Virus record (IMG/VR): IMGVR_UViG_3300030095_005604
Location: 3,448 to 67,447 of that record
Reading direction: 5' to 3' (one strand)
Length of the DNA stretch: 64,000 nt
Origin: a virus
Taxonomy: Duplodnaviria; Caudoviricetes
Part shown: piece after piece, positions 16,240 through 34,247 of the stretch
How positions within the stretch are numbered: position 1 is the stretch's first letter
Layout of the letters: the number at the start of each line of letters is the position of its first letter
Made by a program: the position numbers and the translations under genes
Notes under the pieces: generated by a model
What the model was told of the DNA's origin: nothing
What the model saw: the letters and a program-made list of their open reading frames with translations, nothing else
The model's database searches: none

Positions 16240-17067
16240 ATGCTACAGGAAAAAAATAACACACAAGGAATAGACTTTATAATAGTTGTGTTTTATAGAT
16301 TTGGATATGCACAAATATTAACTGAAAGTATAAAAAAGTATGTAAAAAATATTCCATACACTATCAATATCGTAAACAATGGTATAAACACAGGTGAAAA
16401 TAGTGGTCTTGAAACATTAAAAAATATGTTTAAAGATGAACCAAATGTAAATATTATTGCCGGTATTGAACAAACAATTGATTCAAACAATTTAGAACCT
16501 AACACTTATGAATGTAAACACGATGGACGGAAAGTTTCTATAGGTAGTTATGCTAAAGCTGAGGGAATGAAAAAAGCACTCTTAAATAGTAATCGAGAAT
16601 ATGTGTGCTATCTTGATGCAGATACGGTATTTTTAGGTGAATGGACTGATGAAGTATTGTCTTTATTAGAAGAAAATGTCTTTGTATCACATAAATGGAG
16701 AGAAGACATACAAATGGATGGTAATAATTTTTGTATTGTAAAACGAGAAGTGTTAGACAACAATCATTTATATGAAGAGCATGACTTGTATCCAAATTTA
16801 CATTGGAAAGATAGTAATGGTATGCTGTCTCATTGGGCAAATACAGAAGAATTACCATATGTGATTCTAACTAATAGTCACAACAATCGAAGCCTTAAAT
16901 CTCAACACACTTTAAATTTTTCAAATGGTGAACAAGCATGGATAGACGACAGACCGGTGTTTTTTCATCATGGTCGTGGTTCTGTAAGAGCAGACAAATT
17001 GTATAAAGAATGGATTGAAATCACGAGTAATTATTTAGGACTAAAAATTGAAGACATTACATTGTAA
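16240..17067 (+). CDS. GT-A (GT2-like) glycosyltransferase
   Basis: IDFIIVV, INIVNN, YLDADT; paralog of 18622. Confidence 0.65.
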   Translation: MLQEKNNTQGIDFIIVVFYRFGYAQILTESIKKYVKNIPYTINIVNNGINTGENSGLETLKNMFKDEPNVNIIAGIEQTIDSNNLEPNTYECKHDGRKVSIGSYAKAEGMKKALLNSNREYVCYLDADTVFLGEWTDEVLSLLEENVFVSHKWREDIQMDGNNFCIVKREVLDNNHLYEEHDLYPNLHWKDSNGMLSHWANTEELPYVILTNSHNNRSLKSQHTLNFSNGEQAWIDDRPVFFHHGRGSVRADKLYKEWIEITSNYLGLKIEDITL

Positions 17068-17548
17068 AGAAATAAAAGGTGTAAAAATATTTGAACCTGA
17101 TGTGTTCACAGACTTTAGAGGTGATTTATGGACAACTTGGAAAAAAACTGAGTTTCCATTTGACATAGAATTTATTCACGACAAAGTGTCTACATCGAGA
17201 AAGAATGTTTTAAGAGGTATTCACGGAGATTTTAAATCTCACAAACTTTTTTCTTGTTTATATGGTCAATTGTTTTGTATATTAGTAGATAACAGGAAGG
17301 ATTCAGAAACATATTTAAAATGGACCTCTTTGATATTAGATGATAGAAAAAGAAAAATGGTTTTGACTCCACCAGGTGTAGGAAATGCTTTTTTAGTTTT
17401 AAGTGAAGATTCAGTTTTTAATTACAAATGGGCGTATGAAGGAAAGTATCCTGATGTAGAAGACCAATTTACAATTAAATGGAACGATAAAAGATTAAAC
17501 ATAGATTGGCCAATAGATAATCCAATTTTACAGAAAAGAGATAAATGA
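17048..17548 (+). CDS. rmlC: dTDP-4-dehydrorhamnose 3,5-epimerase
   Basis: DFRG, VLRGIHG, VDNRKDSETY, IKWND...IDWP. Confidence 0.9.
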   Translation: MKTLHCKEIKGVKIFEPDVFTDFRGDLWTTWKKTEFPFDIEFIHDKVSTSRKNVLRGIHGDFKSHKLFSCLYGQLFCILVDNRKDSETYLKWTSLILDDRKRKMVLTPPGVGNAFLVLSEDSVFNYKWAYEGKYPDVEDQFTIKWNDKRLNIDWPIDNPILQKRDK

Positions 17549-18420
17549 AAACATTAGTAACAGGAGGCACAGGGTTAATAGGTTCACATATAAAAGGTGA
17601 TTATAAATTTTCAAGTAAAGATTTACCTCTTACAAATTTACCTGTGGCTAAAAGTATAATAGAAAAACTAAATGTAGATAGAATCATACATTGTGCTGCT
17701 GTACAGAAAAATGGTTCTACGATTGAAAATAATCACTTCAATCATTTTTATGACAATATGATAATAAACTTTAATATGTTAAAAATAGCTTCTGACCTAA
17801 ACATAAAAGAGATATTATCAGTAAGTACTATCAATGCACTTCCTGATATTGATGATTGTAATGAGTTAGAATTACATTCAGGAGCTCCAAGAAAAGAACT
17901 TTATTCAGATGGTTTTGTCAACAGAATGTTAGTCACTGCTTCTCAAACTTTAAGTGAAGAAAGTGATGTACGAACACTATATCCACTTTTAACTAATATT
18001 TATGGTCCGTCTAATAAACCTATGAATGGTATAATTCCTTTCTTTATAAAAAAATGTATAGAATGTAAGAATGAAAATAAAGACTTAGATATTTTAGGTG
18101 ATGGTAGTCCTGTTAGAGATTTTATTTTTGTAGAGGATTTAGATAACATATTTAATTGGATGTTTGATAACTATTTTGAAAATGAACCTTTGATAGTTTC
18201 TACTGGTGTAGGTGTAACTATTAAAGAAATTGTCAATTTGATTGTTAAGTATGTAGATTTTAAAGGTAAAGTAAATTGGATAAAAGATGAAAGATTTACT
18301 GGAACAGATGTTAAAGTTTTTAACAACAAAAAATTAAAAACAATAAATCCTGATATTAAATTTACATCTTTGGAAGATGGTATAAAAAAAACGGTAGGAT
18401 GGTATATAAATAATGGTTGA
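17545..18420 (+). CDS. GDP-fucose synthase/ColC-like epimerase-reductase (extended SDR)
   Basis: VTGGTGLIG, IHCAA, NIYGP, GDGSPVRDFIFVED; the YxxxK site appears altered. Confidence 0.7.
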   Translation: MKTLVTGGTGLIGSHIKGDYKFSSKDLPLTNLPVAKSIIEKLNVDRIIHCAAVQKNGSTIENNHFNHFYDNMIINFNMLKIASDLNIKEILSVSTINALPDIDDCNELELHSGAPRKELYSDGFVNRMLVTASQTLSEESDVRTLYPLLTNIYGPSNKPMNGIIPFFIKKCIECKNENKDLDILGDGSPVRDFIFVEDLDNIFNWMFDNYFENEPLIVSTGVGVTIKEIVNLIVKYVDFKGKVNWIKDERFTGTDVKVFNNKKLKTINPDIKFTSLEDGIKKTVGWYINNG

Positions 18421-18625
18421 TTTAGAATCGTCAGTAAAACAAAAAGGAAAATATGTTACACAGATAATTCATTTTGTCGGTGGTGAAAAAAGAACTTTTA
18501 ATGGAGTTTTAACTGAGAGTATAAAACAAGGACAATTTACTAAGTTTGAATGTAAAAATGGAGCAATGATAATGATAAACGATAAAAATGTACTATGTAT
18601 AGAAATTTTTAAGGAGAATAAATGA
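18413..18625 (+). CDS. Small beta-rich hypothetical protein
   Basis: 70 aa ORF in operon. Confidence 0.5.
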   Translation: MVDLESSVKQKGKYVTQIIHFVGGEKRTFNGVLTESIKQGQFTKFECKNGAMIMINDKNVLCIEIFKENK

Positions 18626-19563
18626 AAGATAATTTTAGAGAAGGTATAGATTTTGTTATAACCGTGTACACAAAAAGACATTACTTGAGAATGTTAGTAG
18701 ATAGTATTCATAAGTATGTCAAAAATGTCCCATACACAATTAACATAGTGAATTGTTGGCATGGAGATAAAAGTGAAGGTTTGAAAGAATTAGATGAAAT
18801 GTTCGGTGATGACAAGACGATAAAAATAATAGAAGGGTTTGACCAAAGTGAAACTACAATTTTACAAGGTGATGGTTCTGTTTTTCAATCTACGAGAGCA
18901 GAACATATGTTTACAGGAGGAATAGATGGTAATCAAAAATCACCATCTACTTGGTTTAAAATAAATAGTGATATTAAAGCATTTGAAAACTCAGATAGAG
19001 AATATATCTGTATATTAGATTTAGATTTAATATTTTTAAACGAGTGGGTTGATGATATATTACCATTACTTGAAGATAATTTATTTATATCAAACAGATA
19101 CGACCCTGGACAGATATTTCACGATGCAGAAAATCCAGTACCAGAAGCTGGGTTAGCTAAAACAATGTTTTTTATATCGAAAAGAAGCTTATATACAGAA
19201 CATACTGGATGGCCTAATTTTGATTATAGAGACGGAGGTGGTAATATTACTTATTATGTTCAACAAAACAAATTACCACACTTGATTTTAGATAACACTT
19301 ATTGGAATAAGAATAGAAGAGCTAGTTATGTAAGAGTAACTCAACCAATTACATACGACCATATAAAAGAATGGCATGTAGGAGGTGATGTTGATGGTGC
19401 TACTATTAATCGTGAACATCATTTGATAGATATGGTTTATGGAGAACAAATGTATGTTAATGGTAAACCATTCGCATTTCATCAAAATCGAGGCGTGAGA
19501 AACACTACAGCAAAAAATGACGAGTGGGTCGCAAAGGCTACAAAATATTTGGAGGAAAACTAA
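18622..19563 (+). CDS. GT-A (GT2-like) glycosyltransferase, paralog of 16240
   Basis: Shared GIDF.I.V, SI.KYVKN.PYTINIVN, REY.C.LD.D, GEQ...G.P..FH..RG. Confidence 0.65.
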   Translation: MKDNFREGIDFVITVYTKRHYLRMLVDSIHKYVKNVPYTINIVNCWHGDKSEGLKELDEMFGDDKTIKIIEGFDQSETTILQGDGSVFQSTRAEHMFTGGIDGNQKSPSTWFKINSDIKAFENSDREYICILDLDLIFLNEWVDDILPLLEDNLFISNRYDPGQIFHDAENPVPEAGLAKTMFFISKRSLYTEHTGWPNFDYRDGGGNITYYVQQNKLPHLILDNTYWNKNRRASYVRVTQPITYDHIKEWHVGGDVDGATINREHHLIDMVYGEQMYVNGKPFAFHQNRGVRNTTAKNDEWVAKATKYLEEN

Positions 19564-19564
19564 A

Positions 19565-20494
19565 ATGCCAGCAGATAGTAAATCAAAAACAACGATATTA
19601 AAATTAAGAAGACACAAAAGAACAGGTGAAAAATCTGTGTTAGTTACAGCTTATGATTATCCACAAGCTATGATAGCTGATAAAGCTGGAGTAGATGCGA
19701 TTCTTGTAGGTGATTCTTGTGGTATGACAACACACGGATTCAAAACAACAATACCAGTAACTATGGATATGATGATAACACATTGTGAAGCTGTAGCTCG
19801 TGGTGCTAATGATGCATTTCTAATTGGAGATATGCCATATATGTCTTATCAAGAATCAGATGAATTAGCAGTAAGAAATGCTGGTAGGTTCATTGTTGCT
19901 GGAATGGATTGTGTAAAGGTTGAAGGTGCTATGGTAGACAGAGTTAAAGCAATTGCTGACTCAGGTATTATGGTAATGAGTCATTTAGGATTGACACCAC
20001 ATACAAGAGCTAAGATGGGTGGATATAGAGTTCAAGGTAAAACTGCTAAGAGTGCAGAAGTTGTGTTGAAACAAGCACTGGCACTACAAGAAGCCGGATG
20101 TTCATTTCTGTTATTAGAAGCAATGCCAACCGAACCAGCTGAGATGATTGCAAAAGAATTATCAATACCTGTTTATGGTATAGGAGCTGGTGATAAGGTT
20201 GACGGTCAGTTAGTTATCTTACACGACTTGGTTGGATTGTTTTGGGAGTTCAAATCTAAGTTTGTAAAAAGATATTGTGAAGCTGGTCAATTGATACAAA
20301 GTTCACTTGAACAATATAGAGATGAAGTAAAAGGTGGCCAATTTCCAGCAGAAGAAAACTTTTATGCAATCAAAGAAGAAGAATTAGAAAAACTACTTGG
20401 TGATTCAAGTTGGAAATACGAAGATTTAAGGGTTGAAAATCAAGCAAAACCCAATCATAGTGCAACACCAAGAACAACTAAGAGGGAGAAATAA
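19565..20494 (+). CDS. panB: Ketopantoate hydroxymethyltransferase-family protein
   Basis: TAYD, LVGDS, DMPYMSY, VKVEG, HLGLTP, GIGAG, DGQ; start moved to ATG 19565. Confidence 0.92.
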   Translation: MPADSKSKTTILKLRRHKRTGEKSVLVTAYDYPQAMIADKAGVDAILVGDSCGMTTHGFKTTIPVTMDMMITHCEAVARGANDAFLIGDMPYMSYQESDELAVRNAGRFIVAGMDCVKVEGAMVDRVKAIADSGIMVMSHLGLTPHTRAKMGGYRVQGKTAKSAEVVLKQALALQEAGCSFLLLEAMPTEPAEMIAKELSIPVYGIGAGDKVDGQLVILHDLVGLFWEFKSKFVKRYCEAGQLIQSSLEQYRDEVKGGQFPAEENFYAIKEEELEKLLGDSSWKYEDLRVENQAKPNHSATPRTTKREK

Positions 20495-22329
20495 TGAAAG
20501 TAGCTGATTATATAGTTAAATATTTAGCCGACTATGGTATAAATGATATGTTTATAGTTTATGGTTCTGCAAATGGTGATATGGTAGATTCATTTGTACG
20601 AACAGATAATACAAGATATGTTGCTGTAATGCACGAACAAGGTGGTGGGTTTGCAGCTGAAGGATGGACTAAAGTTAAAGGGTTACCATCTGTATCTATG
20701 GCAACAAGTGGTCCCGGTGGTATGAATTTTGTAACACCGATTGGTAATTTCTTTTATGATTCAGTACCAGGATTGTTTATAACTGGACAAATCAATTCAC
20801 AATTTATGAGACCTGATGAAAGTATAAGACAGATAGGTTTTCAAGAAACAGACATTGTAAGTATTTGTAAACCGATTACTAAATATGCTAAAATGATTGA
20901 AAGACCTGAAGATGTAAAATATGAAATAGAAAAAGCATTACATATGGCTACAGAAGGAAGACCAGGACCTGTGTTGTTAGATATACCAATGAATGTTCAG
21001 AAGGCAGATATTGATGTAGATACATTGATAGGATACGATAGTGGAATAAAAACAACATTTGATAAAGATTTAATTATAAAACAAGTTGATAAGTTTATTG
21101 AAGATTTACAGAATAGTGAAAGGCCTTGTTTGATGATTGGTGGTGGTGTGAGATTGAGTGGTGCTATTGATGAATTGTTAGAAGTGGGTAGAAGATTAAA
21201 AATACCTATGTTTCCTACTTGGAATGCATTAGATGTCGTATGTTCAGACTACGAATATTATGGTGGTAGAATTGGAACATATGGTGGTGCAGGTAGAAAC
21301 TTTGGTGTTCAGAACTCTGATTTATTACTTGCAATAGGTAGTAGAATATCTGGTAGAATAACTGGTGGTAACATACATAGTTTTGCTAGAGAAGCTAAAA
21401 AATATATGGTTGATGTTGATAAAGCTGGTTTACAGAGATTTTTACAGCAAGTTCCATTTGAAGAATGTATTTATTCAGATGCTAAACTATTCATTGAAAT
21501 ACTAACTATGAGATTAAATGGTATTAAGTTACCAGATTTTACTAAGTGGACAGATAGAGTTATGGAATGGAAAACTAAATACGACCCTGTAACAAAGGAT
21601 ATGTTTAAACCTACAAAATATCCACATCCATACGCTTTCTCAAGAATACTTTCAGAAGAAATGAAAAGTGATGATGTTTTCTGTGGTGATTGTGGTGGTA
21701 ATATAGTTGTGACAAATCATGCATTTGAAACAAAGACTGGTCAAAGATATTTTACTAATAATGGTAATTCACCTATGGGATTTTCTTTTGCTGGTGGTAT
21801 AGGAGCAGCTATAGCAGCTGACAAGTCACAGAATGTAGTGTGTGTGATTGGAGATGGTGGTTTTAATATGAATATACAAGAGTTACAGACATTGATAAAT
21901 TACGATGTGCCTCTTAAAACTATTATTATGAATAATCATATCTATGGTATAACTAAGGCATTTCAAGAAACAAATTTTGAAGGTAGAGCAGAAGCGTGTG
22001 GTCCTAAAGGTTACGACCCACCTAACTTTGTAAAAATTGTAGAAGCTTATGGTATAAAAACTATGACGGTTGACGATGGAACAGATTATGATAAAGTAAG
22101 ACAACAGATAAGAGAGTTTTTAGATTATGATGGTCCTGTTGTTTTAGATTTAAATTGTCACGAGTATCATACATATGACCCAAAAGTTATCGGATGGAAA
22201 ACACCTATTGAGGATATGTATCCTTACTTACCAGATGATGAATTTGATGATAATATGTACATAGAGAAAATAGGACAAGATAGAGTTTATCCAACTTTAG
22301 TTAAGAATGAAACTTGGGATAAAGATTAA
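20494..22329 (+). CDS. ThDP-dependent acetolactate-synthase-like enzyme (possibly YerE-like sugar C-branching carboligase)
   Basis: HEQGGGFAAEG, TSGPG, GRPGPVLLDIP, GDGGFNMNIQEL...NN. Confidence 0.85.
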   Translation: MKVADYIVKYLADYGINDMFIVYGSANGDMVDSFVRTDNTRYVAVMHEQGGGFAAEGWTKVKGLPSVSMATSGPGGMNFVTPIGNFFYDSVPGLFITGQINSQFMRPDESIRQIGFQETDIVSICKPITKYAKMIERPEDVKYEIEKALHMATEGRPGPVLLDIPMNVQKADIDVDTLIGYDSGIKTTFDKDLIIKQVDKFIEDLQNSERPCLMIGGGVRLSGAIDELLEVGRRLKIPMFPTWNALDVVCSDYEYYGGRIGTYGGAGRNFGVQNSDLLLAIGSRISGRITGGNIHSFAREAKKYMVDVDKAGLQRFLQQVPFEECIYSDAKLFIEILTMRLNGIKLPDFTKWTDRVMEWKTKYDPVTKDMFKPTKYPHPYAFSRILSEEMKSDDVFCGDCGGNIVVTNHAFETKTGQRYFTNNGNSPMGFSFAGGIGAAIAADKSQNVVCVIGDGGFNMNIQELQTLINYDVPLKTIIMNNHIYGITKAFQETNFEGRAEACGPKGYDPPNFVKIVEAYGIKTMTVDDGTDYDKVRQQIREFLDYDGPVVLDLNCHEYHTYDPKVIGWKTPIEDMYPYLPDDEFDDNMYIEKIGQDRVYPTLVKNETWDKD

Positions 22330-23858
22330 TGACAGATGTGTTATTTATAGCACCAAGTAATTCAAAAGGTATTTATCAAGATTTAGCAAAAGATTATGCA
22401 GGAATTGAACCACCTACTTGGGCGTGTTTGTTGGCAGAATCTTGTAGGTCTATAGGCCACAAAGTTGATATATTAGACACAGGTGCCGAAAGACTTACAC
22501 ACGAAGAATCATTAAACAGAATAAAAGAAATAAATCCAAGATTGCTATGTTTTGTTGTTTATGGACAAAATGTTAATGCAGGTACAACTATGATGAGTGG
22601 AGCAGTTTCACTATCAGAATATATAAAAAATAATGATGTAAACATTCCGATAGCGTATATAGGTTCGCATGTTCAAGCTTTACCATATGAAACACTCAGA
22701 AAAGAATCAAGTATTGATTTTGTATTTACTAATGAAGCTGTTTACTCTTTAAGAAAATTGTTATCACACTCAGATTTTATGAATCAATTACCGAATATAA
22801 AAGGTATAGGTTATCGTGAAAATGGGAAACCCACATTAACTACACCAGAAATAGGTGTTCCTAATGAGAGAATGGATATTGATTTACCTGGCTATGCTTG
22901 GGATTTGTTACCATATAAAGATAGACCATTTGATTTATATAGAAGTCCAATGTGGCATGCAGAGTATGATGAAAAGAAAAGGTCACCATATGCAGCTATA
23001 AACTCTTCATTAGGTTGTCAATTCAAATGTGAATTTTGTATGATAAATATACTTAATCGAGATGATGATGAGGAGATAGGAGTTGCAGGTAACTATAGTA
23101 AAATGAGATACTGGTCACCTGAGTTTGTTTTAAAACAATTTGATAAATTGGTAGAGATGGGTGTTTACAACATAAGAATAATTGATGAAATGTTTTTATT
23201 AAATCGTAAATACTATCAACCATTATGTGAGGGGTTGATTGAAAGAGGATATGGTAAAGATTTAATAATGTGGGCATATTCAAGAGTTGATACGGTTAGA
23301 AGACCAGAAATTCTAAAATTAGTCAGAGATGCTGGTATAAGATGGTTAGGTATAGGTATTGAAAGTGGTGATAGACAAGTTCGATTAGAAGTATCTAAAG
23401 GTAAATTTAAAGATGTTGATATAAAAAAAGTTGTCAGAAAAGTAGAAGAAGCTGGTATAAATGTTATGGCTAATTATATATTTGGATTACCAACAGATAC
23501 ACACAAATCTATGAGAACAACTCAAGACTTGGCATTAGATTTAGCAACATTAGGTTGGAATGGTTATTCTGCTATGCCTTTACCAGGTAGTCAGTTGTAT
23601 AAAGATGCAGTAGAAGCTGGATGGGAACTTCCTTCAGATTATGAGGGATATTCATTTCATGCTTATACTACCGTTCCAGTACCTACTGATAATTTAACTT
23701 CGAGTGAAATATTAAAATTTAGAGATGAGGCATATCTGGAATATCACACATCAGAAAAGTTTCTTTCTAAAGTAAAAGCAAAATATGGTCAAGACGCAGT
23801 GGACAACATTCTAAAGAATTGTGAGATAAAATTAAAAAGAAAAATATTAGGAGATTAG
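22329..23858 (+). CDS. Cobalamin-binding (class B) radical SAM enzyme
   Basis: N-terminal B12-like domain (EPPTW...GSHVQALP), CQFKCEFC, GIESG. Confidence 0.85.
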   Translation: MTDVLFIAPSNSKGIYQDLAKDYAGIEPPTWACLLAESCRSIGHKVDILDTGAERLTHEESLNRIKEINPRLLCFVVYGQNVNAGTTMMSGAVSLSEYIKNNDVNIPIAYIGSHVQALPYETLRKESSIDFVFTNEAVYSLRKLLSHSDFMNQLPNIKGIGYRENGKPTLTTPEIGVPNERMDIDLPGYAWDLLPYKDRPFDLYRSPMWHAEYDEKKRSPYAAINSSLGCQFKCEFCMINILNRDDDEEIGVAGNYSKMRYWSPEFVLKQFDKLVEMGVYNIRIIDEMFLLNRKYYQPLCEGLIERGYGKDLIMWAYSRVDTVRRPEILKLVRDAGIRWLGIGIESGDRQVRLEVSKGKFKDVDIKKVVRKVEEAGINVMANYIFGLPTDTHKSMRTTQDLALDLATLGWNGYSAMPLPGSQLYKDAVEAGWELPSDYEGYSFHAYTTVPVPTDNLTSSEILKFRDEAYLEYHTSEKFLSKVKAKYGQDAVDNILKNCEIKLKRKILGD

Positions 23859-23863
23859 GACGG

Positions 23864-25027
23864 ATGAAATTTGATTGGCAACTTATAAATGATAGTATAA
23901 CAAAAGAAGATAAAAAAGCACTTACTGATTTTATTAATACAGATGGAGTTAGATTTACACAAGGTAAGTATGTTAGACAATTTGAAGAAGAATGGTCTAA
24001 ATGGGTAGGATGTAAACATAGTGTTTATGTAAACTCAGGTGCTTCTGCTAACTACATTATGGCGTCAATAATGAAAGAGAAAAAAGGTTTAGGTGAAGTA
24101 ATTGTATCACCACTCGGATGGGTTTCAGATGTGTCACCATTAGTTAATCTCGGTTTTACACCTGTATTTGTTGATGTTGATTTAGAAAATATGTCAATTA
24201 CATTAGAAAACATCAAGAAAGCTGTAACAGATAAAACGGTAGGAATTACTTTGGTGCATGTTTTAGGATTCAACGCAGTTAATGATGAGTTGGTTGAGTT
24301 CTGTAAAGATGAAGATTTATTCTTTATTGAAGATTGTTGTGAAGCACACGGTGCAACTTATAATGGTGAGAGAGTTGGTAACTTTGGAGATGTATCTAAC
24401 TTTTCATTTTATTTTGGACATCACATAACATCTGTTGAAGGTGGAATGGTATGTACAAATGATGATGAGTTATATAATTATGCAAAACTATTCAGGTCAC
24501 ACGGAATGGTGAGAGAAGCATCAAAAGAAACTCAAGACAAGTTTAAAGAAAGTCATCCAGGTTGTAATCCATTATTTACATTTGCTGTTCCAGGATACAA
24601 TTTGAGAAATCAAGAGTTTAATGCTGTTTTAGGTTTGTCTCAATTACCAAGATTACAAAACAATGTTGAAGTTAGGTCTGAAAATTTAGAAATATGGTTA
24701 GACACATTAGATTCAGATATATTCTTTACTGATTTTGACAGAGAAGGAAATAGTAATTTTGCATTACCTTTAATTTTATTAAAAAAAGACTTGGAATATT
24801 TCCAAAAAGTTTGTAAATTATTAGATGAAGAGAATGTTGAATTTAGAATTGGTACAGCAGGCGGTGGTAATCAATCAAGACAACCATATTTAGAAAAATA
24901 TGAATTTGTTACTCACGATTTGAGTAATGTAAATCACATTCACGATTACGCTTTATATGTAGGTAATCATCCAGAACTAACAAAAGGACAAATAATTGAT
25001 TTGTGTAGGAAATTAAATAATGTTTAA
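23864..25027 (+). CDS. DegT-fold PLP/PMP enzyme with His at the catalytic Lys position (ColD/E1-type 3-dehydratase)
   Basis: VNSGASAN, EDCCEAHG, FSFYFGHHITSVEGG, GYNLR; 387 aa. Confidence 0.8.
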   Translation: MKFDWQLINDSITKEDKKALTDFINTDGVRFTQGKYVRQFEEEWSKWVGCKHSVYVNSGASANYIMASIMKEKKGLGEVIVSPLGWVSDVSPLVNLGFTPVFVDVDLENMSITLENIKKAVTDKTVGITLVHVLGFNAVNDELVEFCKDEDLFFIEDCCEAHGATYNGERVGNFGDVSNFSFYFGHHITSVEGGMVCTNDDELYNYAKLFRSHGMVREASKETQDKFKESHPGCNPLFTFAVPGYNLRNQEFNAVLGLSQLPRLQNNVEVRSENLEIWLDTLDSDIFFTDFDREGNSNFALPLILLKKDLEYFQKVCKLLDEENVEFRIGTAGGGNQSRQPYLEKYEFVTHDLSNVNHIHDYALYVGNHPELTKGQIIDLCRKLNNV

Positions 25028-25901
25028 TGGAAAGCGTTCAAGACCAATACCTAATAGTGAAGTATTTAACTTCGTAGGAAAGGCTCTAAAACAACAATAT
25101 TTATATGACAAAAATGTTGTGGATGTATTTCTACATACATACCACGAATGGTTACAGAGTAGTAAATTAAATACATTACACGGGTTAGACAAGTTTGATA
25201 AACTAGGTTTTGTCCATGGAACATCACAGGCATTTGATTTCTTTTATGCAGAAAATAAAGATAGAAGAATGAGATGTTTTAAAGGTGATTTTATATATCA
25301 CGGAGTTACTTGGAGAAATAACTATCCAAACTGGAAATATTTAGAAGACGATGAAATATTAGCTAACGATGCAGTAATCATTTCTTTACCATTTAGTGAT
25401 TATGGTGCAGAACATCCAGATATGCAAAGTATATTAGATAAATGTGATGAATTGCATGTGCCTGTTTTTGTTGATTGTGCTTATTATTCTATTGCTAGAA
25501 ATATAAACTTTGATTTAAATAGAGATTGTATAAAGGGAGTTACATTCAGTTTAAGTAAAGCCTTTTATGGTGCTGAAAGAGTGAGAATAGGTATAAGATG
25601 TAAAAAAGAATACAATGATGACCCTGTAGATTTATTTACAAGCATGGGTATGATTTCAAAAATATCAGCAGGAGTAGGGTTAGAATTATGTAATGAATTT
25701 AGTCCTGATTACAATCACGAAAAATATAGACTTTCACAAATTGACATTTGTAAAAAATTAAACATAGAACCAAGTGATTGTGTTCAGTTTGGAATAACAG
25801 ATGAAAATCACAAAGACTTTGGAGATTACGATAGAGGTAGTAGATGGAGAAGAGTTTGTATATCAAAACTATTAAGTGATATGGGAGATGATTATGAGTA
25901 A
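25020..25901 (+). CDS. PLP-dependent fold-type-I-like protein
   Basis: GTSQAFD, VFVDCAYY, FSLSKAF. Confidence 0.55.
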   Translation: MFNGKRSRPIPNSEVFNFVGKALKQQYLYDKNVVDVFLHTYHEWLQSSKLNTLHGLDKFDKLGFVHGTSQAFDFFYAENKDRRMRCFKGDFIYHGVTWRNNYPNWKYLEDDEILANDAVIISLPFSDYGAEHPDMQSILDKCDELHVPVFVDCAYYSIARNINFDLNRDCIKGVTFSLSKAFYGAERVRIGIRCKKEYNDDPVDLFTSMGMISKISAGVGLELCNEFSPDYNHEKYRLSQIDICKKLNIEPSDCVQFGITDENHKDFGDYDRGSRWRRVCISKLLSDMGDDYE

Positions 25902-26607
25902 AGATTATGAAAGTCTATTAGACTATAAAAAATCTTTAAAAGATTGGCACTATGACCCTTCTGTACCATCAAACGATGCTGTGTATATAGGTAGAATAAC
26001 TAACTTAGACTTTTCTTCAATTAAGTTAAAAATTAAACAAAAAGAATCTGAGAATGGGATAAAATTATATGAAGATGACTTTAAAAATGGTAAATTGATT
26101 CCATCGCAACTTAGTCCAGACTCAGTTGGTGCTGTTAAATTAGACCATATTAGGCACGGTTATAATAAATATAATAGTAGATATACACAATGGATTGATA
26201 ATAGAGACGATTTACCAACAGATTTCAATACTATAAAAAATCTTTGTTCATTAAAAGATGCTACAATAGCTTGTTTTAAACAAGAACCTGGCCACACAAA
26301 TCCTTGGCACTTTGACACATATCAAGGTGCAGTGGAGAGAGGAAATCTTACAGATGAAGAAAGAAAGAATGTGAAAAGATATTTGTTGTTTTTAGAAAAT
26401 TGGGATTGGGGACATTTTTTACAAGTAGGTAATTCTGTTTTAACTCATTGGAAAGCTGGTGATATGTACACTTGGGATTATGGTATGTATCATCTATCAT
26501 CTAATGCTGGTATTGCACCTAAGTGGACTTGTCAAATAACAGGATATCCTACAAAAGAATCATTACATAATTTATCAGAATTTGAATTTAAGCTGGGAGA
26601 CGAATGA
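25894..26607 (+). CDS. 2OG-Fe(II) oxygenase-like (DSBH) protein
   Basis: PGHTNPWHFD...YHLSSN HxD...H triad. Confidence 0.55.
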   Translation: MSKDYESLLDYKKSLKDWHYDPSVPSNDAVYIGRITNLDFSSIKLKIKQKESENGIKLYEDDFKNGKLIPSQLSPDSVGAVKLDHIRHGYNKYNSRYTQWIDNRDDLPTDFNTIKNLCSLKDATIACFKQEPGHTNPWHFDTYQGAVERGNLTDEERKNVKRYLLFLENWDWGHFLQVGNSVLTHWKAGDMYTWDYGMYHLSSNAGIAPKWTCQITGYPTKESLHNLSEFEFKLGDE

Positions 26608-27569
26608 AAATATTTATCACAGGAATAACAGGTTTTGTTGGTAGTCATATGGCCGATTATATATTAAAAAATACAAATGATGAAATAATTGGATTTAAAA
26701 GGTGGATGGAAGATACAAAAAATATAGACCATTTAGAAGATAATCCGAGAGTGACAATGTATGGTGGTGATTTAGTAGATTATGCTAGTGTAGATAGGGT
26801 TATTAGATTGACTAAACCCGATAAAGTATTTCATTTTGCCGCTCAGAGTTTTCCAGAAACAAGTTTCAGACAACCAGTAATAACTTTACATACGAATGTT
26901 ATAGGAACTACTCATTTGTTTGAATCTATAAAAACAAATGAATTAGACCCTGTAATAGTGAGTGTATCAACGAGTGAAGTTTACGGTAATCCGACAGAAG
27001 ATGAGATACCAATAACAGAACATAATCCAATTAGAGCAGCTAATCCATATTCAATATCAAAAGTTGGACACGATTTGATGTCACAATATTATTATAATGC
27101 ATATGGTATGAAGATTATAACAACACGAATGTTTAGTCACGAAGGTGCAAGAAGAGGTAAAGAGTTCGCTGTATCATCATTTGCACATCAGATAGCTAAA
27201 GGTGAAAAGAATGGTAATTGTGTAGTCAAACACGGTAATTTAGATTCAGTTAGAACATATAGTCATATAGATGATGCTATAGAAGCTTATTGGCTGTGTT
27301 CAGAGAGTGATAAATATGGTGAAGTATACAATATTGGTGGCAATGAAACTTGTAAAGTTGGTGATGCTTTAGATGCATTAATATCAAAATCTGATAAAGA
27401 TTTTGTTAAAGTTTTAGATGAAAAAAGAATGAGACCAACAGATATAACTTTACAAATACCATCTACTGCTAAATTTAGAACTGATTTCGATTGGGAACCT
27501 AAAAAAACTATGGATGATATTTGGAATGATTTATTAAATTATTGGAGAGGAGAACTAAAAAATGGCTAA
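26604..27569 (+). CDS. GDP-mannose 4,6-dehydratase/GDP-keto-sugar reductase-like SDR
   Basis: ITGITGFVG, HFAAQS, STSEVYG, PYSISK, HGNLDSVR. Confidence 0.85.
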   Translation: MKIFITGITGFVGSHMADYILKNTNDEIIGFKRWMEDTKNIDHLEDNPRVTMYGGDLVDYASVDRVIRLTKPDKVFHFAAQSFPETSFRQPVITLHTNVIGTTHLFESIKTNELDPVIVSVSTSEVYGNPTEDEIPITEHNPIRAANPYSISKVGHDLMSQYYYNAYGMKIITTRMFSHEGARRGKEFAVSSFAHQIAKGEKNGNCVVKHGNLDSVRTYSHIDDAIEAYWLCSESDKYGEVYNIGGNETCKVGDALDALISKSDKDFVKVLDEKRMRPTDITLQIPSTAKFRTDFDWEPKKTMDDIWNDLLNYWRGELKNG

Positions 27570-30159: not shown

Positions 30160-31125
30160 ATGAAAACAGCTTTAGTAACAGGAATTAATGGAATGGATGG
30201 TAGTCACTTAGCTGACTTACTATTAGAAAAAGGTTATAATGTTTATGGTATGGAAAGGCGTTCTTCTTCTAAAAACAGAATTAATACAGCACACTTAGAA
30301 GGAAAAATTACATTTGTTAACGGAGATTTGACAGACCAAAACTCATTAGTCAGGTGTTTAAAAGAATCTAATCCTGATGAAGTTTATAATTTGGCTTCTC
30401 AATCATTTGTTGGTGAGAGTTGGAACACGCCAGAACAGACAGGTGATGTAACAGGACTTGGAGTGTTAAGAATGTTAGAGGCTATTAGAGAGTACGGGGA
30501 AGAAGTTAAATTTTATCAAGCGTCAACATCAGAAATGTTTGGTAGGATGGTTGAAAATCCAGCAAAAGAAACAACACCATTTTATCCTCGTTCACCATAT
30601 GGTGTAGCTAAATTATATGGTCATTGGATTACGAAGAATTACAGAGAGTCTTATGATATGTTTAATGTAAGTGGATTATTATTTAATCACGAATCAGAAC
30701 GAAGAGGTATTGAATTTGTAACTCGTAAGATTTCAGATGGTATAGCAAGGATACAATTAGGATTACAAGATAAGATAATACTTGGTAATTTAGATGCTAA
30801 AAGAGATTGGGGATACGCTCCTGATTATTGTGAAGCTATGTGGTTGATGTTACAACAAGATACACCTGATGATTATGTTATAGCAACTGGTGAAGACCAC
30901 ACTATCAGAGAATTTTTAGATATTGGATTTTCTGAAATAGGTATATCTAATTGGGAAAAGTATGTTGGACAAGATGAAAGATATATGAGGCCAGCTGAAG
31001 TTGCAGTTCTTTGTGGAGATTCTACAAAGGCTAGGAAAAATTTACAATGGGAACCAAAAACTTCTTTTGAGGGGTTAGTAACAAAAATGGTTCAGAACGA
31101 TATAAAACTAATAGGGAGAAAATAA
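30160..31125 (+). CDS. gmd: GDP-mannose 4,6-dehydratase
   Basis: TGINGMDG, NLASQSFV, QASTSEMFG, PRSPYGVAKLY, LFNHESERRG, GNLDAKRDWG. Confidence 0.95.
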   Translation: MKTALVTGINGMDGSHLADLLLEKGYNVYGMERRSSSKNRINTAHLEGKITFVNGDLTDQNSLVRCLKESNPDEVYNLASQSFVGESWNTPEQTGDVTGLGVLRMLEAIREYGEEVKFYQASTSEMFGRMVENPAKETTPFYPRSPYGVAKLYGHWITKNYRESYDMFNVSGLLFNHESERRGIEFVTRKISDGIARIQLGLQDKIILGNLDAKRDWGYAPDYCEAMWLMLQQDTPDDYVIATGEDHTIREFLDIGFSEIGISNWEKYVGQDERYMRPAEVAVLCGDSTKARKNLQWEPKTSFEGLVTKMVQNDIKLIGRK

Positions 31126-32425: not shown

Positions 32426-32832
32426 GTGAAAGAAAATATTTACCAACATTAGCTGAACTTATAGATAGATTATCCATAATACAGCTCAAGGAAGTTTTTA
32501 TATCTGAACATAAAACAGAATATGCAGAAGAAATAAAAGATATTGTACACGACATCGATATGATATTACAAGATGAGAATGTAAAGTTGAGTGGGAAAGA
32601 TGTCAGAGCAATTGTAGTATTGTCACAGATGAATTTACATATTTGGCATAATGAATCAGAAGCAAGAAAAGGAATAAATGCTGGAGAAAATCTTTTACTT
32701 ACTCACGGATTAAATGGTATCAGAAACACTGCTAAAAACATAATACAAGAAAATGTTGGTGGTAGAAAAGATTACAAAATTGATTGTATAGCAGATGAAT
32801 TTAAAGATTGGGAGATTAGTTGGAATGAGTAA
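32422..32832 (+). CDS. Hypothetical helical protein
   Basis: TLAELIDRLSI...NLHIWHNE...RN..KN pattern. Confidence 0.5.
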   Translation: MSERKYLPTLAELIDRLSIIQLKEVFISEHKTEYAEEIKDIVHDIDMILQDENVKLSGKDVRAIVVLSQMNLHIWHNESEARKGINAGENLLLTHGLNGIRNTAKNIIQENVGGRKDYKIDCIADEFKDWEISWNE

Positions 32833-33568
32833 AAAGGTTCTTATCATAGGAGATAGTTGTACAGATGTTTTTGTTTATGGTGACATAAATAGAATATGTC
32901 CAGAAGCACCTGTTCCAGTTATTAAACCAACACATCAAACTGAAAATGGTGGAATGTCTAAAAATGTACAAGAAAATATTGAAGTATTAGGTTATGATAC
33001 TCATATTATTACAAATAACAATGACATCAGAAAAGTTAGATATGTAGATAACAGCTCAAATCAATTAGTTATAAGAGTAGATGAACACGATTATTGTGAA
33101 AGAATTAGTAAAAAACAATTAACTAAAGTGATGGAAAGATGTTATGATGCTATAATAGTATCAGATTATTGTAAAGGATTTTTAACTGAAGAAGATATTA
33201 AATGGATTTGTGAAAATAACAATAATGTTTTTATAGATACAAAAAAGAAATTAGGTGAATGGATTTTAAAAGCTAAATTTATAAAAATAAATCATCTTGA
33301 ACATTTAAAGAATTTTGAAATAATACCAAACTATCCAGAATTTAACGACAAATTGATAGTGACTCAAGGTAGTAAAGGTTGTATTTACAATGGAGAAACA
33401 TTTCCTGTACAAGAAGTTTCAGTAAAAGATGTTTCAGGAGCTGGAGACACTTTTTTATCAGGATTGGTAGTTGAGTATATCAGAACAGGAGATATAAAAA
33501 AAGCAATTAATTTTGCTCAAGATTGCACAACAAAAGTAGTACAAAAATTAGGAGTATCAACAATATGA
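32825..33568 (+). CDS. HldE/RfaE kinase domain (PfkB family)
   Basis: VLIIGD, RICPEAPVPV, SDYCKG, DVSGAGDTF. Confidence 0.9.
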   Translation: MSKKVLIIGDSCTDVFVYGDINRICPEAPVPVIKPTHQTENGGMSKNVQENIEVLGYDTHIITNNNDIRKVRYVDNSSNQLVIRVDEHDYCERISKKQLTKVMERCYDAIIVSDYCKGFLTEEDIKWICENNNNVFIDTKKKLGEWILKAKFIKINHLEHLKNFEIIPNYPEFNDKLIVTQGSKGCIYNGETFPVQEVSVKDVSGAGDTFLSGLVVEYIRTGDIKKAINFAQDCTTKVVQKLGVSTI

Positions 33569-33855
33569 TAATATATGTGGATATAGATGGTACAATTTGC
33601 CATACAACAAATGCAGACTATGAAAATTCAAAACCAAGACACGACCAAATAGATAAGATAAATAAATTATACGATGAAGGACACGAAATAGTTTATTGGA
33701 CAGCTCGTGGTGGGACTACTGGTATTGATTGGAAACTTTTTACAAAAATACAGATTAACAATTGGGGCTGTAAGTATACAAGAATTGAAGAACAAAAAAA
33801 ACCATCATATGATTTATTTATTGATGACTTGTCAAAAAGAATAGAGGAAATATAA
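33565..33855 (+). CDS. Small HAD-family phosphatase
   Basis: IYVDIDGTIC, WTARG, FIDD. Confidence 0.8.
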   Translation: MIIYVDIDGTICHTTNADYENSKPRHDQIDKINKLYDEGHEIVYWTARGGTTGIDWKLFTKIQINNWGCKYTRIEEQKKPSYDLFIDDLSKRIEEI

Positions 33856-34247
33856 TGGGACACAAAATTAAACCAAAAGTATGTGAAGGTTGTAAGGTTC
33901 CGAAAGGATGGGGAGAAGAAATCATCATTGAGAACAATGAAATGTATTGTGGTAAACTTTTGATTTTCAAAAAAGGTTGTAAGTTTTCAATGCACTATCA
34001 TTTAATTAAAGATGAAACTTGGTATGTAGACAAAGGTGAATTTCTTTATCGTTGGATAGATACAGATACAGCAGAAACTATTGAACAAAAATTAAAAGTA
34101 GGTGATGTAGTTAGACAAAGAGTTGGTCAACCACATCAATTAGAAGCATTAACAGATGGTGTAGTATTTGAAGTATCAACACAACACTTTGATGAGGATA
34201 GTTATAGAGTATGGAAAGGAGATAGTCAAAATGAAAGTATGGACTAA
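33855..34247 (+). CDS. Cupin (sugar isomerase-like)
   Basis: VPKGWGEE, SMHYH..KDETWYV, PHQLEA, EVST. Confidence 0.75.
   Translation: MGHKIKPKVCEGCKVPKGWGEEIIIENNEMYCGKLLIFKKGCKFSMHYHLIKDETWYVDKGEFLYRWIDTDTAETIEQKLKVGDVVRQRVGQPHQLEALTDGVVFEVSTQHFDEDSYRVWKGDSQNESMD

Follow-up and report, generated by a model that had tools for sequence, protein, structure and literature searches.

A phage gene set that most likely builds a carbon-branched deoxysugar and appears to have borrowed PanB to make the side chain

Acyl-branched sugars and the enzymes that build them

Several pathways for branched or deoxygenated sugars resemble the genes examined here. In the synthesis of yersiniose A by Yersinia pseudotuberculosis, a His-type PMP enzyme (E1, which requires the reductase E3) deoxygenates C3, and the ThDP-dependent enzyme YerE then uses pyruvate to add a C2 branch at C4 of the 4-keto CDP-hexose, with YerF as the reductase. 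A unifying scheme for acyl-branched sugars (PMC9306805) extends this chemistry to erwiniose (ErwI, ErwE, ErwF), caryophyllose (MMAR_2331, MMAR_2332) and gastriose (MygI, MyGE). In these clusters an aldolase makes a hydroxylated 2-oxoacid that ErwE, MMAR_2332 or MyGE couples to the 4-keto-3,6-dideoxy sugar, and ErwE accepts 4-hydroxy-2-oxobutanoate but not pyruvate. Colitose is made without E3 from a GDP-sugar by Gmd, ColD and ColC. Finally, the Campylobacter jejuni HS:5 route to a GDP-3,6-dideoxy-heptose proceeds through a 4,6-dehydratase, a PLP/Glu C3-dehydratase, a C5-epimerase and a C4-reductase (PMC10680097).

We examined a 64,000-nucleotide stretch (hereafter the window; positions 3,448 to 67,447 of IMG/VR record IMGVR_UViG_3300030095_005604), which is a T4-like contig from an uncultured marine phage. 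A preliminary description had proposed that genes at 17048-27569 make a C-branched dideoxysugar, with PanB supplying a hydroxymethyl or pantoyl-like substituent and a radical SAM enzyme adding a C-methyl group. These genes lie inside a roughly 32-kb glycan island. The observation itself was confirmed, in that all the listed genes exist as co-directional, mostly overlapping ORFs, although two identities required correction. The proposed interpretation was only partly supported, as discussed below. The features are as follows.

17048..17548 (+), NDP-4-keto-sugar C3/C5-epimerase (RmlC-fold cupin, 166 aa), closest to C. jejuni GDP-4-keto-heptose epimerases
17545..18420 (+), GDP-fucose-synthase-like SDR (291 aa) lacking the catalytic Tyr and Lys, probably not a working reductase
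18622..19563 (+), unknown 313-aa protein, possible GT-A glycosyltransferase, paralogue of 16240-17067
19517..20494 (+), PanB-type 2-oxoacid hydroxymethyltransferase, probable true start at Met17 (19565), giving 309 aa
20494..22329 (+), YerE/JanthE-like ThDP-dependent carboligase (611 aa)
22329..23858 (+), B12-binding radical SAM enzyme (509 aa), reaction unknown (C-methylation or C-C rearrangement)
23864..25027 (+), ColD-type PLP/PMP-dependent NDP-4-keto-sugar C3-dehydratase (387 aa) with His in place of the Schiff-base Lys
25020..25901 (+), short (293 aa) class I/II-fold PLP aminotransferase-like enzyme
25876..26607 (+), cupin/double-stranded beta-helix metalloprotein (237-243 aa), possible Fe(II) oxygenase or sugar isomerase
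26604..27569 (+), NDP-heptose 4,6-dehydratase-like extended SDR (321 aa)
30160..31125 (+), true GDP-mannose 4,6-dehydratase (Gmd), outside the module, an alternative source of a 4-keto-6-deoxy acceptor
32795..34617 (+), split HldE-like heptose-7-P kinase (32795-33568), small HAD phosphatase (33523-33855), cupin (33855-34247) and heptose-1-P nucleotidyltransferase-like protein (34168-34617), probable NDP-heptose supply, outside the module

Identities of the encoded proteins

The DegT-fold protein matches Pfam DegT_DnrJ_EryC1 at 247.6 bits, and its best solved relatives are E. coli ColD (2gms, E=7e-58) and then E1 (3bcx, 2e-46). The alignment with ColD, which had been named in advance as a check, places the G-H-H of the phage protein against S-H-H of ColD. 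Because the ColD mutant entries read S-N-H and S-K-H at that spot, the first His is the His188 equivalent. Furthermore, all 25 DegT homologues that lie beside related ThDP genes, in viral and cellular loci, carry His at this site.

The ThDP enzyme has all three ThDP domains and a GDG...NN motif at residue 453, and thus shares the architecture and ThDP motif of AHAS, but it scores 353 bits against the 538 cut-off of the AHAS large-subunit equivalog. A comparison of this protein with YerE and IlvB had likewise been proposed beforehand, and the protein ranks with YerE-like structures rather than AHAS. The protein scores 290 bits to JanthE (8rph), described as a YerE-like ketone-accepting carboligase (PMC12188165, PMC12247030), and 275 bits to 5ahk, against at most 229 bits to any AHAS. 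In a Terriglobia genome (G005), the copy in a GT2/Gmd/DegT/SDR locus is 60% identical (834 bits), whereas the housekeeping ilvB next to ilvC and ilvD is 33% identical (240 bits). The enzyme is therefore orthologous to glycan-locus copies and not to housekeeping ilvB; clustering with the housekeeping copies had been named as an outcome that would count against the proposal.

PanB matches Pfam Pantoate_transf at 326.5 bits and TIGR00222 at 280 bits against a 207.55 cut-off, and it keeps D45, S46, D84, K112, E114, H136 and E181 (E. coli numbering). It has the same fold and catalytic residues as housekeeping PanB, and because it passes the equivalog cut-off, sequence cannot separate it from a housekeeping enzyme. 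However, in a tree it falls in a supported clade (98/96) with other PanBs that lie beside such ThDP genes, apart from panC-adjacent copies, and this clade has conserved V179L, I200Y and V214I changes (E. coli numbering). The clade also holds two copies with no glycan context, namely a second G005 copy beside a transposase and one on a short contig. No IlvN C-terminal domain, IlvD, PanC or IlvC was found anywhere in the 67,447-base record, and PanB and the ThDP enzyme have no panC/D/E or ilvN/C/D context. Whether the rest of the pan/ilv pathway lies elsewhere in the genome had been set as a further test, but the record is a phage fragment to which that test does not apply. PanB and the ThDP enzyme also occur in two DPANN genome bins in which no IlvC, IlvD or PanC was found, although DPANN and CPR bins may be incomplete or may contain misbinned viral contigs.

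The radical SAM protein carries Pfam B12-binding and Radical_SAM domains and a CxxxCxxC motif at residue 230. Its best family matches are HpnJ (119 bits against a 577 cut-off) and BchE, both far below their cut-offs, and the solved match to AprD4 is only partial. C-methylation by this protein, as proposed earlier, was not tested, and its role is open.

The flanking enzymes indicate two corrections. The SDR at 26604, which had been called Gmd-like, is closest to a GDP-heptose 4,6-dehydratase from C. jejuni (YxxxK is present at residue 149), and a true Gmd lies instead at 30160 (TIGR01472 at 423.5 bits against a 415 cut-off; Pfam at 436.5 bits). The SDR at 17545, which had been called Fcl/ColC-like, has human GDP-L-fucose synthase as its best solved relative (115 bits), but Asp122 and Asn126 occupy the Y-x-x-x-K positions, and the gene is not conserved in related loci. 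The epimerase at 17048 matches Pfam dTDP_sugar_isom at 136.8 bits and falls below the rmlC equivalog cut-off. Its best solved relatives are the C. jejuni enzymes 8db5, 8dco, 8dcl and 7m14 at 170-176 bits, against about 93 bits for dTDP RmlC.

The remaining proteins are less well defined. The 313-aa protein at 18622 has only a weak Pfam Glycos_transf_2 hit (E=0.0026), clusters with the ORF at 16240, and is not conserved in related loci. The protein at 25020 has weak hits to Pfam Aminotran_1_2 and an NCBIfam valine-pyruvate transaminase model, and its ESM Atlas neighbours are viral 'aminotransferase class I/II' clusters. Its family keeps invariant D-x-A-Y and S-x-S-K motifs, but it too is not conserved in the related loci. 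The protein at 25876 has no Pfam hit, but 40 homologues share an invariant HxD...H triad (H139, D141 and H200), and a Foldseek search with an AlphaFold2 model (pLDDT 85) finds cupins and Fe/2OG oxygenases at TMq 0.3-0.4. In the downstream set, rfaE_dom_I (122 bits) and rfaE_dom_II (120 bits) are both below cut-off, Pfam detects PfkB, HAD, Cupin_2 and CTP_transf_like domains, and homologues recur in related viral loci.

Conserved linkage of PanB and the ThDP enzyme

The grouping of these genes is not due to chance, because the same genes recur together in 21 viral and 19 genome loci. PanB lies directly upstream of the ThDP gene in 15 of the 15 viral loci that have PanB, and the epimerase is present in all 15. 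The pair is also adjacent in Terriglobia and Planctomycetia loci and within 5 kb in two DPANN loci. However, PanB is absent from 6 of 21 viral and 15 of 19 genome loci that carry the ThDP enzyme, so it is an accessory to the branching step. In the window, the PanB stop overlaps the ThDP start by one base (TAATG). A B12 radical SAM gene of one of two types adjoins the PanB-ThDP pair in most viral loci. Related viral loci also carry an SDR that scores 337 bits to 6vo6, which is the C4-dehydrogenase Cj1427. The stretch occurs nearly unchanged in marine metagenomes of at least 10 studies, so it is maintained in nature.

A proposed route to a branched sugar and its alternatives

Our analysis establishes the gene identities, the motifs and the conserved linkage across viruses and cells, whereas every substrate, the order of steps and the hand-over from PanB to the ThDP enzyme are inferences. 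The preliminary description is supported in its core, since these are glycan-tailoring genes rather than vitamin B5 or branched-chain amino acid auxiliaries, and the coupling of a His-type 3-dehydratase to a YerE-like carboligase implies a C-branched deoxysugar. We consider it most likely (probability of roughly 0.6) that the module makes a C4-acyl-branched 3,6-dideoxy sugar, most likely on a heptose scaffold. In this view, the SDR at 26604 would oxidise and dehydrate an NDP-heptose to a 4-keto-6-deoxy sugar, although Gmd could supply GDP-4-keto-6-deoxymannose instead. The ColD-like enzyme would then remove the C3 hydroxyl using PLP and glutamate, with no need for an E3 partner, and the cupin epimerase would set the C5 (or C3) configuration. 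In parallel, PanB would use methylene-tetrahydrofolate to hydroxymethylate a host 2-oxoacid. The canonical substrate is 2-oxoisovalerate, giving ketopantoate, and pyruvate or 2-oxobutyrate are alternatives. The ThDP enzyme would decarboxylate that 2-oxoacid and add the acyl-anion equivalent to the C4 ketone, creating a tertiary alcohol with a hydroxylated acyl branch. The radical SAM enzyme, the aminotransferase-like protein and the cupin metalloprotein may tailor the branch or ring further.

This scheme departs from the earlier proposal in the role given to PanB. Because PanB chemistry needs a 2-oxoacid, the enzyme most plausibly acts before the ThDP step, making the donor, rather than adding a hydroxymethyl group to the sugar. 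It would thus play the role of the aldolase in erwiniose synthesis. The only direct chemical link between the two enzymes is that the PanB product is a 2-oxoacid and YerE-like enzymes take 2-oxoacids as donors. However, ketopantoate has a quaternary carbon next to the carbonyl, and no YerE-like enzyme has been reported to accept such a donor. Furthermore, no convincing YerF-like branch ketoreductase is assigned, because the nearest SDR lacks its Tyr and Lys. No enzyme was assayed, and neither the glycan structure nor the host is known. The resemblance of the scaffold enzymes to the C. jejuni GDP-heptose set, rather than to the colitose or CDP-hexose set, suggests that the scaffold is probably a 3,6-dideoxyheptose. 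Hexose and heptose scaffolds cannot be told apart, since a true Gmd is 2.6 kb away and cellular loci pair this ThDP enzyme with Gmd. The kinase and nucleotidyltransferase resemble the ADP-heptose type (HldE) rather than HddA/HddC, whereas the tailoring enzymes resemble GDP-heptose enzymes. The HldE-like kinase and nucleotidyltransferase downstream and the 6vo6-like SDR of related viral loci also speak for a heptose scaffold, and the set matches the characterised HS:5 route.

Other readings seem less likely. Perhaps the branching pathway is the same but the ThDP enzyme uses pyruvate, as YerE prefers to do (PMC12247030), giving an acetyl branch, while PanB acts on another 2-oxoacid. This could be a 3-deoxy-2-ulosonic acid made by the NanE/NeuB/CMP-transferase module that lies 7 kb upstream, given our inference that open-chain ulosonic acids are 2-oxoacids with a C3 hydrogen, or a pantoate-like acid attached to the glycan as a substituent. 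The absence of PanB from many loci with the ThDP enzyme is consistent with this possibility. However, none of the 21 related viral loci has a NeuB homologue within 10 kb, yet 15 keep PanB directly upstream of the ThDP gene. In addition, no acyl-activating enzyme or acyltransferase was found in the module, and the one-base overlap points to co-expression of PanB and the ThDP enzyme. We therefore regard this reading as unlikely, though it is the strongest of the alternatives.

It is more doubtful still that PanB, the ThDP enzyme and the radical SAM enzyme build a free, non-sugar branched hydroxy-ketone or acid, for example with ketopantoate as an AHAS-style acceptor or by simple decarboxylation, to serve as a separate metabolite or a later non-C-linked decoration. 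AHAS-family enzymes naturally use 2-oxoacids as acceptors, the three genes form a tight, translationally coupled block, and a radical SAM-ThDP pair occurs without PanB in some loci. However, His-type 3-dehydratases co-occur in 25 loci and sugar 4-keto-forming enzymes recur alongside, a pattern that is hard to explain if no keto-sugar is the acceptor. The closeness to ketone-accepting enzymes also argues against this reading, and no enzyme for attaching a free acid was found. Least likely is that PanB and the ALS-like enzyme are ordinary auxiliary metabolic genes that boost host pantothenate/CoA and branched-chain amino acid synthesis during infection and merely sit inside the glycan island. 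Phages are known to carry metabolic genes, a record filed as Microcystis phage MaAM05 has panB next to panC, and the phage PanB passes the curated equivalog cut-off and keeps all catalytic residues. However, in addition to the relationships and missing pathway genes noted above, the pair is embedded between sugar-nucleotide enzymes in every locus, and ALS and PanB are not consecutive steps without IlvC and IlvD.

Compared with the erwiniose, caryophyllose and gastriose pathways, this locus likewise joins a YerE-like carboligase to enzymes for a 4-keto-3,6-dideoxy NDP-sugar and to a neighbouring enzyme for a hydroxylated 2-oxoacid donor, within a surface-glycan locus. It differs in that the donor-making enzyme is PanB, a folate-dependent hydroxymethyltransferase of the PEP-mutase/isocitrate-lyase fold, rather than a pyruvate aldolase, a use of PanB that we found in no paper. 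The deoxygenase is of the GDP-type ColD class rather than CDP-type E1/E3, the scaffold enzymes are of the heptose type, a B12 radical SAM gene is attached, and the carrier is a phage. The yersiniose A pathway shares C3 deoxygenation followed by C4 branching, but here the dehydratase is ColD-like, and neither E3 nor an intact YerF-type reductase was identified. The C. jejuni set likewise includes a ColD-type C3-dehydratase, but C. jejuni reduces the 4-keto group to finish its sugar, whereas here a ThDP carboligase, PanB and a radical SAM enzyme are inserted and the nearby Fcl-like reductase is degenerate. Relative to the colitose pathway, a ColD-like His enzyme and a true Gmd share the island and the GDP-sugar chemistry without E3 is the same, but there is no functional ColC, the adjoining dehydratase is heptose-type, and the ThDP, PanB and radical SAM genes have no counterpart. 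The module would thus be part of a phage-encoded nucleotide-sugar factory, which appears to have borrowed a vitamin B5 enzyme to make the side chain of an unusual carbon-branched deoxysugar.

Setting of the module within the glycan island

The window (positions 3448-67447 of the 67,447-base IMG/VR virus record) has about 30% G+C, and nearly all of its genes lie on one strand. It carries T4-type replication genes for a clamp loader, an exonuclease and a CobS-like AAA protein, and the nearest cultured relatives of the clamp loader are Microcystis and Pelagibacter myophages at 41-45% identity. The CheckV completeness of the record is given as 5%, which for a 67-kb contig would imply either a very large genome or a poor estimate. 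From about 9.7 to 41.4 kb there is one glycan-biosynthesis island that holds a NanE/NeuB/CMP-transferase module, many SDRs, glycosyltransferases, a true Gmd and an HldE-like kinase/nucleotidyltransferase set. The genes examined here cover the middle of this island, and those discussed below are as follows.

16240 and 18622, paralogous proteins with a faint GT-A signal
17048, epimerase resembling Campylobacter jejuni GDP-4-keto-heptose epimerases
17545-18420, GDP-fucose-synthase-like (Fcl-like) SDR
19517 (as listed) or 19565 (Met17), PanB, followed directly by the ThDP enzyme and then the B12-binding radical SAM protein
23864, His-type DegT-fold protein of 387 aa
25020, short class I/II-fold PLP enzyme
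25876, cupin/DSBH protein
26604, SDR resembling the C. jejuni GDP-heptose 4,6-dehydratase
30160, true Gmd
32422, protein of unknown function
32795, PfkB kinase
36490-37467, second radical SAM gene, of the SPASM type

Every element named in the preliminary description is present, and its observation is confirmed. The SPASM-type radical SAM gene also recurs in related viral loci (e.g., L017:14472-15674, where L-numbers denote individual loci), and its role has not been assigned. A promoter and terminator scan of 15.5-29.5 kb found no more sites than in shuffled sequence. Metagenome contigs from two studies join across 18186-23132 and 26256-27388 with a few other letters between, and perhaps related phages carry different cassettes at these points, although these joints were seen only at low stringency. 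The 5.5-kb core occurs almost unchanged in marine metagenomes of at least ten studies from 2014 to 2024. Two metatranscriptome libraries also hold short exact contigs of the ThDP/radical SAM junction, the radical SAM gene and the ColD-like gene. This is a weak hint of expression. DNA carry-over cannot be excluded, and the absence of coverage elsewhere carries no meaning.

Assignment of the dehydratase and the carboligase

The 387-aa protein has the DegT/aspartate-aminotransferase fold (Pfam PF01041, 247.6 bits) and reads ...FYFGHHITSVEGG... at the site of interest. Its best solved relative is ColD of E. coli O55 (E=7e-58), ahead of E1 (2e-46). Alignment of the protein with ColD, which had been proposed in advance as a check, places G-H-H on the S-H-H of ColD (2gms). 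The H188N and H188K mutant entries of ColD read S-N-H (3b8x) and S-K-H (2r0t) at that spot, which fixes the first His as the catalytic one (ColD His188, E1 His220) that replaces the Schiff-base Lys. ColD-subtype enzymes are about 390 aa and work without E3, whereas E1-subtype enzymes are about 437 aa, carry a [2Fe-2S] cluster and need E3. The protein scores 200 bits to ColD against 162 to E1, and no E3-like gene was recognised in the island, but the Fe-S ligands were not mapped and the choice between the two subtypes was left unsettled by these data. C3 deoxygenation of an NDP-4-keto-6-deoxy sugar was not assayed. Among records of cultured phages (INPHARED, tblastn), ColD-like genes are found in Synechococcus phages.

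The ALS-like protein has three ThDP-enzyme domains (Pfam TPP_enzyme_N, _M and _C) and a GDG...NN cofactor motif at residue 453, but it fails the cut-off of the AHAS family (TIGR00118, 353 against 538 bits). Among solved structures, the top match is 8rph (290 bits), followed by 5ahk (275 bits), and true acetolactate synthases start at 229 bits. The 8rph structure is JanthE, which is described as a YerE-like enzyme that couples 2-oxoacid donors to ketones (PMC12188165, PMC12247030). The 5ahk structure is the Pseudomonas protegens YerE homolog (PpYerE). A literature search by structure code returned nothing for 5AHK and only unrelated papers for 6VO6, 7US5, 8DB5 and 8DCO. We conclude that the ThDP enzyme is a YerE-like carboligase by sequence and context, although YerE, ErwE and MyGE were not included in a tree, and carboligation of a 2-oxoacid donor onto a keto-sugar was not measured here.

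The family of this ThDP enzyme is large. More than 120 clusters at 68% identity or above came from marine metagenomes, whose annotated gene contexts were not examined, and there are 21 IMG/VR loci and 19 loci in genome assemblies at 54-66% identity. Most of the genome hits are contigs of CPR or DPANN bins (loci L023, L026, L027, L029, L032, L033, L035, L038 and L039), some of them 228-283 kb long, and these may be genuine small-genome organisms with branched-sugar loci or large phage genomes binned with them. A Pelagibacteraceae (SAR11-family) single-cell assembly of 24% G+C (locus L034) carries the ThDP enzyme at 57% identity together with a His-type DegT protein and Gmd, which is either a possible host link or a host glycan that the phage copies. 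The INPHARED records hold no member of this ThDP clade, given that hits of at most 28% identity lie in bacterial-looking records, and they also hold no close relative of the radical SAM protein.

One of the genome loci lies in a 6.5-Mb Terriglobia contig and comprises GT2, carbamoyltransferase, SDR, Gmd, ThDP enzyme, SDR, DegT, SDR and SDR. Clustering with housekeeping IlvB had been put forward beforehand as a result that would count against the interpretation. In this Terriglobia genome, the glycan-locus copy matches the phage protein at 60% identity (834 bits), whereas the ilvB gene next to ilvC and ilvD matches at 33% (240 bits). The phage gene therefore does not cluster with housekeeping ilvB. 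Moreover, the ThDP gene is encoded with genes that make a 4-keto-3,6-dideoxy NDP-sugar, and no IlvN C-terminal domain, IlvC, IlvD or PanC was found in the 67,447-base record.

The His-type dehydratase travels with the ThDP enzyme. We extracted every DegT-family protein encoded within the fetched flanks of these ThDP genes, 14 from viruses and 11 from genome assemblies, and all 25 have His at the Lys position. This is the arrangement of yersiniose synthesis, in which C3 deoxygenation leaves a 4-keto-3,6-dideoxy sugar that YerE then branches at C4 (PMC9306805).

PanB as a possible donor supplier

PanB passes the curated family cut-offs (TIGR00222, 280 against 207.55 bits; NF001452, 317 against 272 bits), and its catalytic residues (Asp45, Ser46, Asp84, Lys112, Glu114, His136 and Glu181) are near-invariant across 35 sequences that include the viral ones. 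The ORF as listed overlaps the upstream gene by 47 bases, but Met17 at 19565 starts one base after the stop of that gene and gives 309 aa, which matches the 308-aa homologs. In the 15 viral loci that contain PanB, it is always the gene directly upstream of the ThDP gene, and the epimerase is present in all 15. In the window, PanB/ThDP and ThDP/radical SAM each share a one-base TAATG overlap. The pair is also adjacent in a Terriglobia locus, where PanB is broken, and in a Planctomycetia locus with the order ThDP, PanB, B12 radical SAM, GHMP kinase, B12 radical SAM. A Planctomycetia genome bin (L037:215-2277) also carries a pyruvate-dehydrogenase-type E1 alpha/beta pair in the same locus as the ThDP-PanB-radical SAM block, which gives two different ThDP systems in one glycan locus. 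PanB lies within 5 kb of the ThDP gene in two DPANN bins of 0.8 and 1.0 Mb, which have this PanB and ThDP enzyme but no detectable IlvC, IlvD or PanC, although the bins may be incomplete or may include viral contigs. How often PanB lies near a YerE-like gene rather than panC was not counted over all GTDB and IMG/VR genomes. We also searched five PanB-less viral records for HpcH/HpaI and HMGL-like aldolases that might stand in place of PanB and found none, but the records are fragments, so this says nothing either way, and the PanB-less loci were not annotated for other 2-oxoacid-forming enzymes.

In a maximum-likelihood tree, the viral PanBs (support 100/99) join the Planctomycetia and DPANN copies in a clade (98/96) that is apart from panC-adjacent copies of Acidobacteriota, E. 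coli and the record of Microcystis phage MaAM05. Grouping with housekeeping PanB, another outcome named ahead of the analysis as adverse, was thus not observed for the panC-adjacent copies. Three positions near the active-site motifs differ consistently between the clades (V179L, I200Y and V214I). However, the clade also contains two copies without glycan context, so it is not strictly diagnostic, and the surroundings of one of these, a second PanB copy in the Terriglobia genome, were a transposase and unrelated genes and gave no information. The MaAM05 record (MW495066.1, 257-270 kb) holds the one panB found among cultured-phage records, with panB, panC and sufBCD in a row. This copy looks housekeeping, and the arrangement looks like bacterial DNA or an unusual metabolic block. 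Given its neighbors, its placement in the tree and the lack of PanC in the record, a role of the window's PanB in pantothenate synthesis is not supported.

PanB needs a 2-oxoacid with a C3 hydrogen, and its product is again a 2-oxoacid, which is the class of donor that YerE-like enzymes consume. This is the only direct substrate-product link between the two proteins. ALS and PanB are not consecutive steps without IlvC and IlvD. The published precedent is close. In the erwiniose cluster, the aldolase ErwI makes 4-hydroxy-2-oxopentanoate, which ErwE couples to the keto-sugar, and ErwE rejects pyruvate and accepts 4-hydroxy-2-oxobutanoate. Aldolase/carboligase pairs likewise explain caryophyllose and gastriose (PMC9306805). 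We therefore read PanB as taking the aldolase role. It would deliver ketopantoate if it keeps canonical specificity, and it would deliver 4-hydroxy-2-oxobutanoate or its 3-methyl form if it uses pyruvate or 2-oxobutyrate. Whereas the gene identities and their linkage come from the sequences examined, this step is inferred, and none of the substrate assignments yet rests on biochemistry. We do not claim that PanB and the ThDP enzyme bind each other, and no complex was modeled. A literature search for panB or ketopantoate hydroxymethyltransferase together with branched sugars, phages or glycosylation turned up only a biocatalysis review, and no paper that we could search links PanB to branched sugars.

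Scaffold, accessory genes and significance

The scaffold is probably a heptose. The epimerase at 17048 scores 170-176 bits to C. jejuni GDP-4-keto-heptose C3- and C3/C5-epimerases (8db5 at 176 bits), against about 93 bits to dTDP RmlC, and the SDR at 26604 scores 243 bits to the C. jejuni GDP-heptose 4,6-dehydratase (7us5), against about 115 bits to Gmd. Most related viral loci instead carry an SDR that scores 337 bits to 6vo6. The 6vo6 structure is Cj1427, the GDP-heptose C4-dehydrogenase. The use of this dehydrogenase is described in PMC10680097. In many of these phage loci (L002, L003, L008-L011 and L019; e.g., L008:17930-19161), this SDR is part of a conserved run with a small Mpo1-like (PF06127) protein, a 133-aa unknown protein and a PfkB kinase. 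The window keeps only the last two (32422, 32795), and the presence of an Mpo1-like dioxygenase in a sugar locus is unexplained. Downstream in the window are a split HldE-like kinase and nucleotidyltransferase, a small HAD phosphatase and a cupin, all of which score below cut-offs, and no SIS isomerase was seen, whereas some related loci carry a GHMP kinase. These observations leave this part of the match to the C. jejuni heptose set undecided. The characterised C. jejuni HS:5 route consists of a 4,6-dehydratase, then a PLP/glutamate C3-dehydratase, a C5-epimerase and a C4-reductase, giving GDP-3,6-dideoxyheptose. The window has the first three, and where the reductase would act it has the carboligase block. 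A hexose scaffold remains possible because a true Gmd lies at 30160 (423.5 bits against a 415 cut-off) and because cellular loci pair this ThDP enzyme with Gmd.

The Fcl-like SDR (17545-18420) keeps its GxxGxxG nucleotide (Rossmann) motif but has Asp122 and Asn126 where the catalytic Tyr and Lys of human GDP-fucose synthase align, and it scores 84 bits against a 500 cut-off for NF047922. It lacks the SDR catalytic Ser-Tyr-Lys triad of GDP-L-fucose synthase and ColC, is unlikely to be the ColC- or YerF-type reductase, and may be a pseudo-enzyme or a repurposed binding protein. The protein at 25020 belongs to a large viral family of short class I/II-fold PLP enzymes with invariant D-x-A-Y and S-x-S-K motifs, and it could make a 2-oxoacid from an amino acid or aminate the branch. 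The protein at 25876 is a cupin/DSBH protein with an invariant HxD...H triad. The proteins at 18622 and 16240 are paralogs with a faint GT-A signal. These four genes are not conserved in related loci and look like strain-specific tailoring.

The radical SAM protein has an N-terminal B12-binding domain and a radical SAM core with CxxxCxxC. This enzyme, or a second 680-aa B12 type, adjoins the ThDP gene in most viral loci, including three without PanB. Its best NCBIfam matches are the non-methylases HpnJ (119 against 577 bits) and BchE (102 against 481 bits), the PhpK-type methylase family scores only 72 against 600 bits, and among solved structures only AprD4 matched, at 64 bits. These scores do not decide whether the protein is a class B methyltransferase, and methyl transfer was not examined. 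Methylation, as proposed in the preliminary description, is therefore only one option. A bolder possibility, which we consider unlikely, is that marine phages, and some bacteria and DPANN archaea, make a sugar of a kind not yet described, namely a 3,6-dideoxyheptose that carries at C4 a pantoyl-derived (3-hydroxy-2,2-dimethylpropanoyl) branch. In this view, PanB would be recruited for the first time outside vitamin B5 synthesis, and the HpnJ/BchE-like enzyme would not methylate but would forge a further C-C bond, as in the ring chemistry behind carbocyclic or bicyclic sugars such as caryose and bradyrhizose.

The interpretation offered in the preliminary description is partly supported. It is right in its core, which is glycan tailoring and a branched deoxysugar of the YerE type, but it needs correction on the scaffold, which is probably a heptose, on the point at which PanB acts, and on the Fcl-like gene, and the radical SAM enzyme is not assigned a reaction. 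ThDP-dependent sugar branching fed by an aldolase-made 2-oxoacid is established for a few bacterial surface sugars. The system described here follows that acyl-branched-sugar scheme but differs in having PanB as the inferred donor supplier, a probable ColD/heptose-type scaffold, an attached B12 radical SAM enzyme and a phage carrier. PanB would be a folate-dependent way to make the donor, and the branching logic would sit on a Campylobacter-type deoxyheptose scaffold.

The biological purpose of the phage glycan is not established, but it could decorate virions or remodel the host surface. A PanB/carboligase pair that builds tertiary alcohols next to quaternary carbons would also interest synthetic chemists. 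Annotation pipelines would call these genes panB and ilvB and score them as vitamin or amino acid auxiliary genes, and that reading is probably wrong here. PanB next to a YerE-like gene and a His-type DegT gene would flag an undescribed branched sugar in viruses, Planctomycetia, Terriglobia and DPANN/CPR bins.
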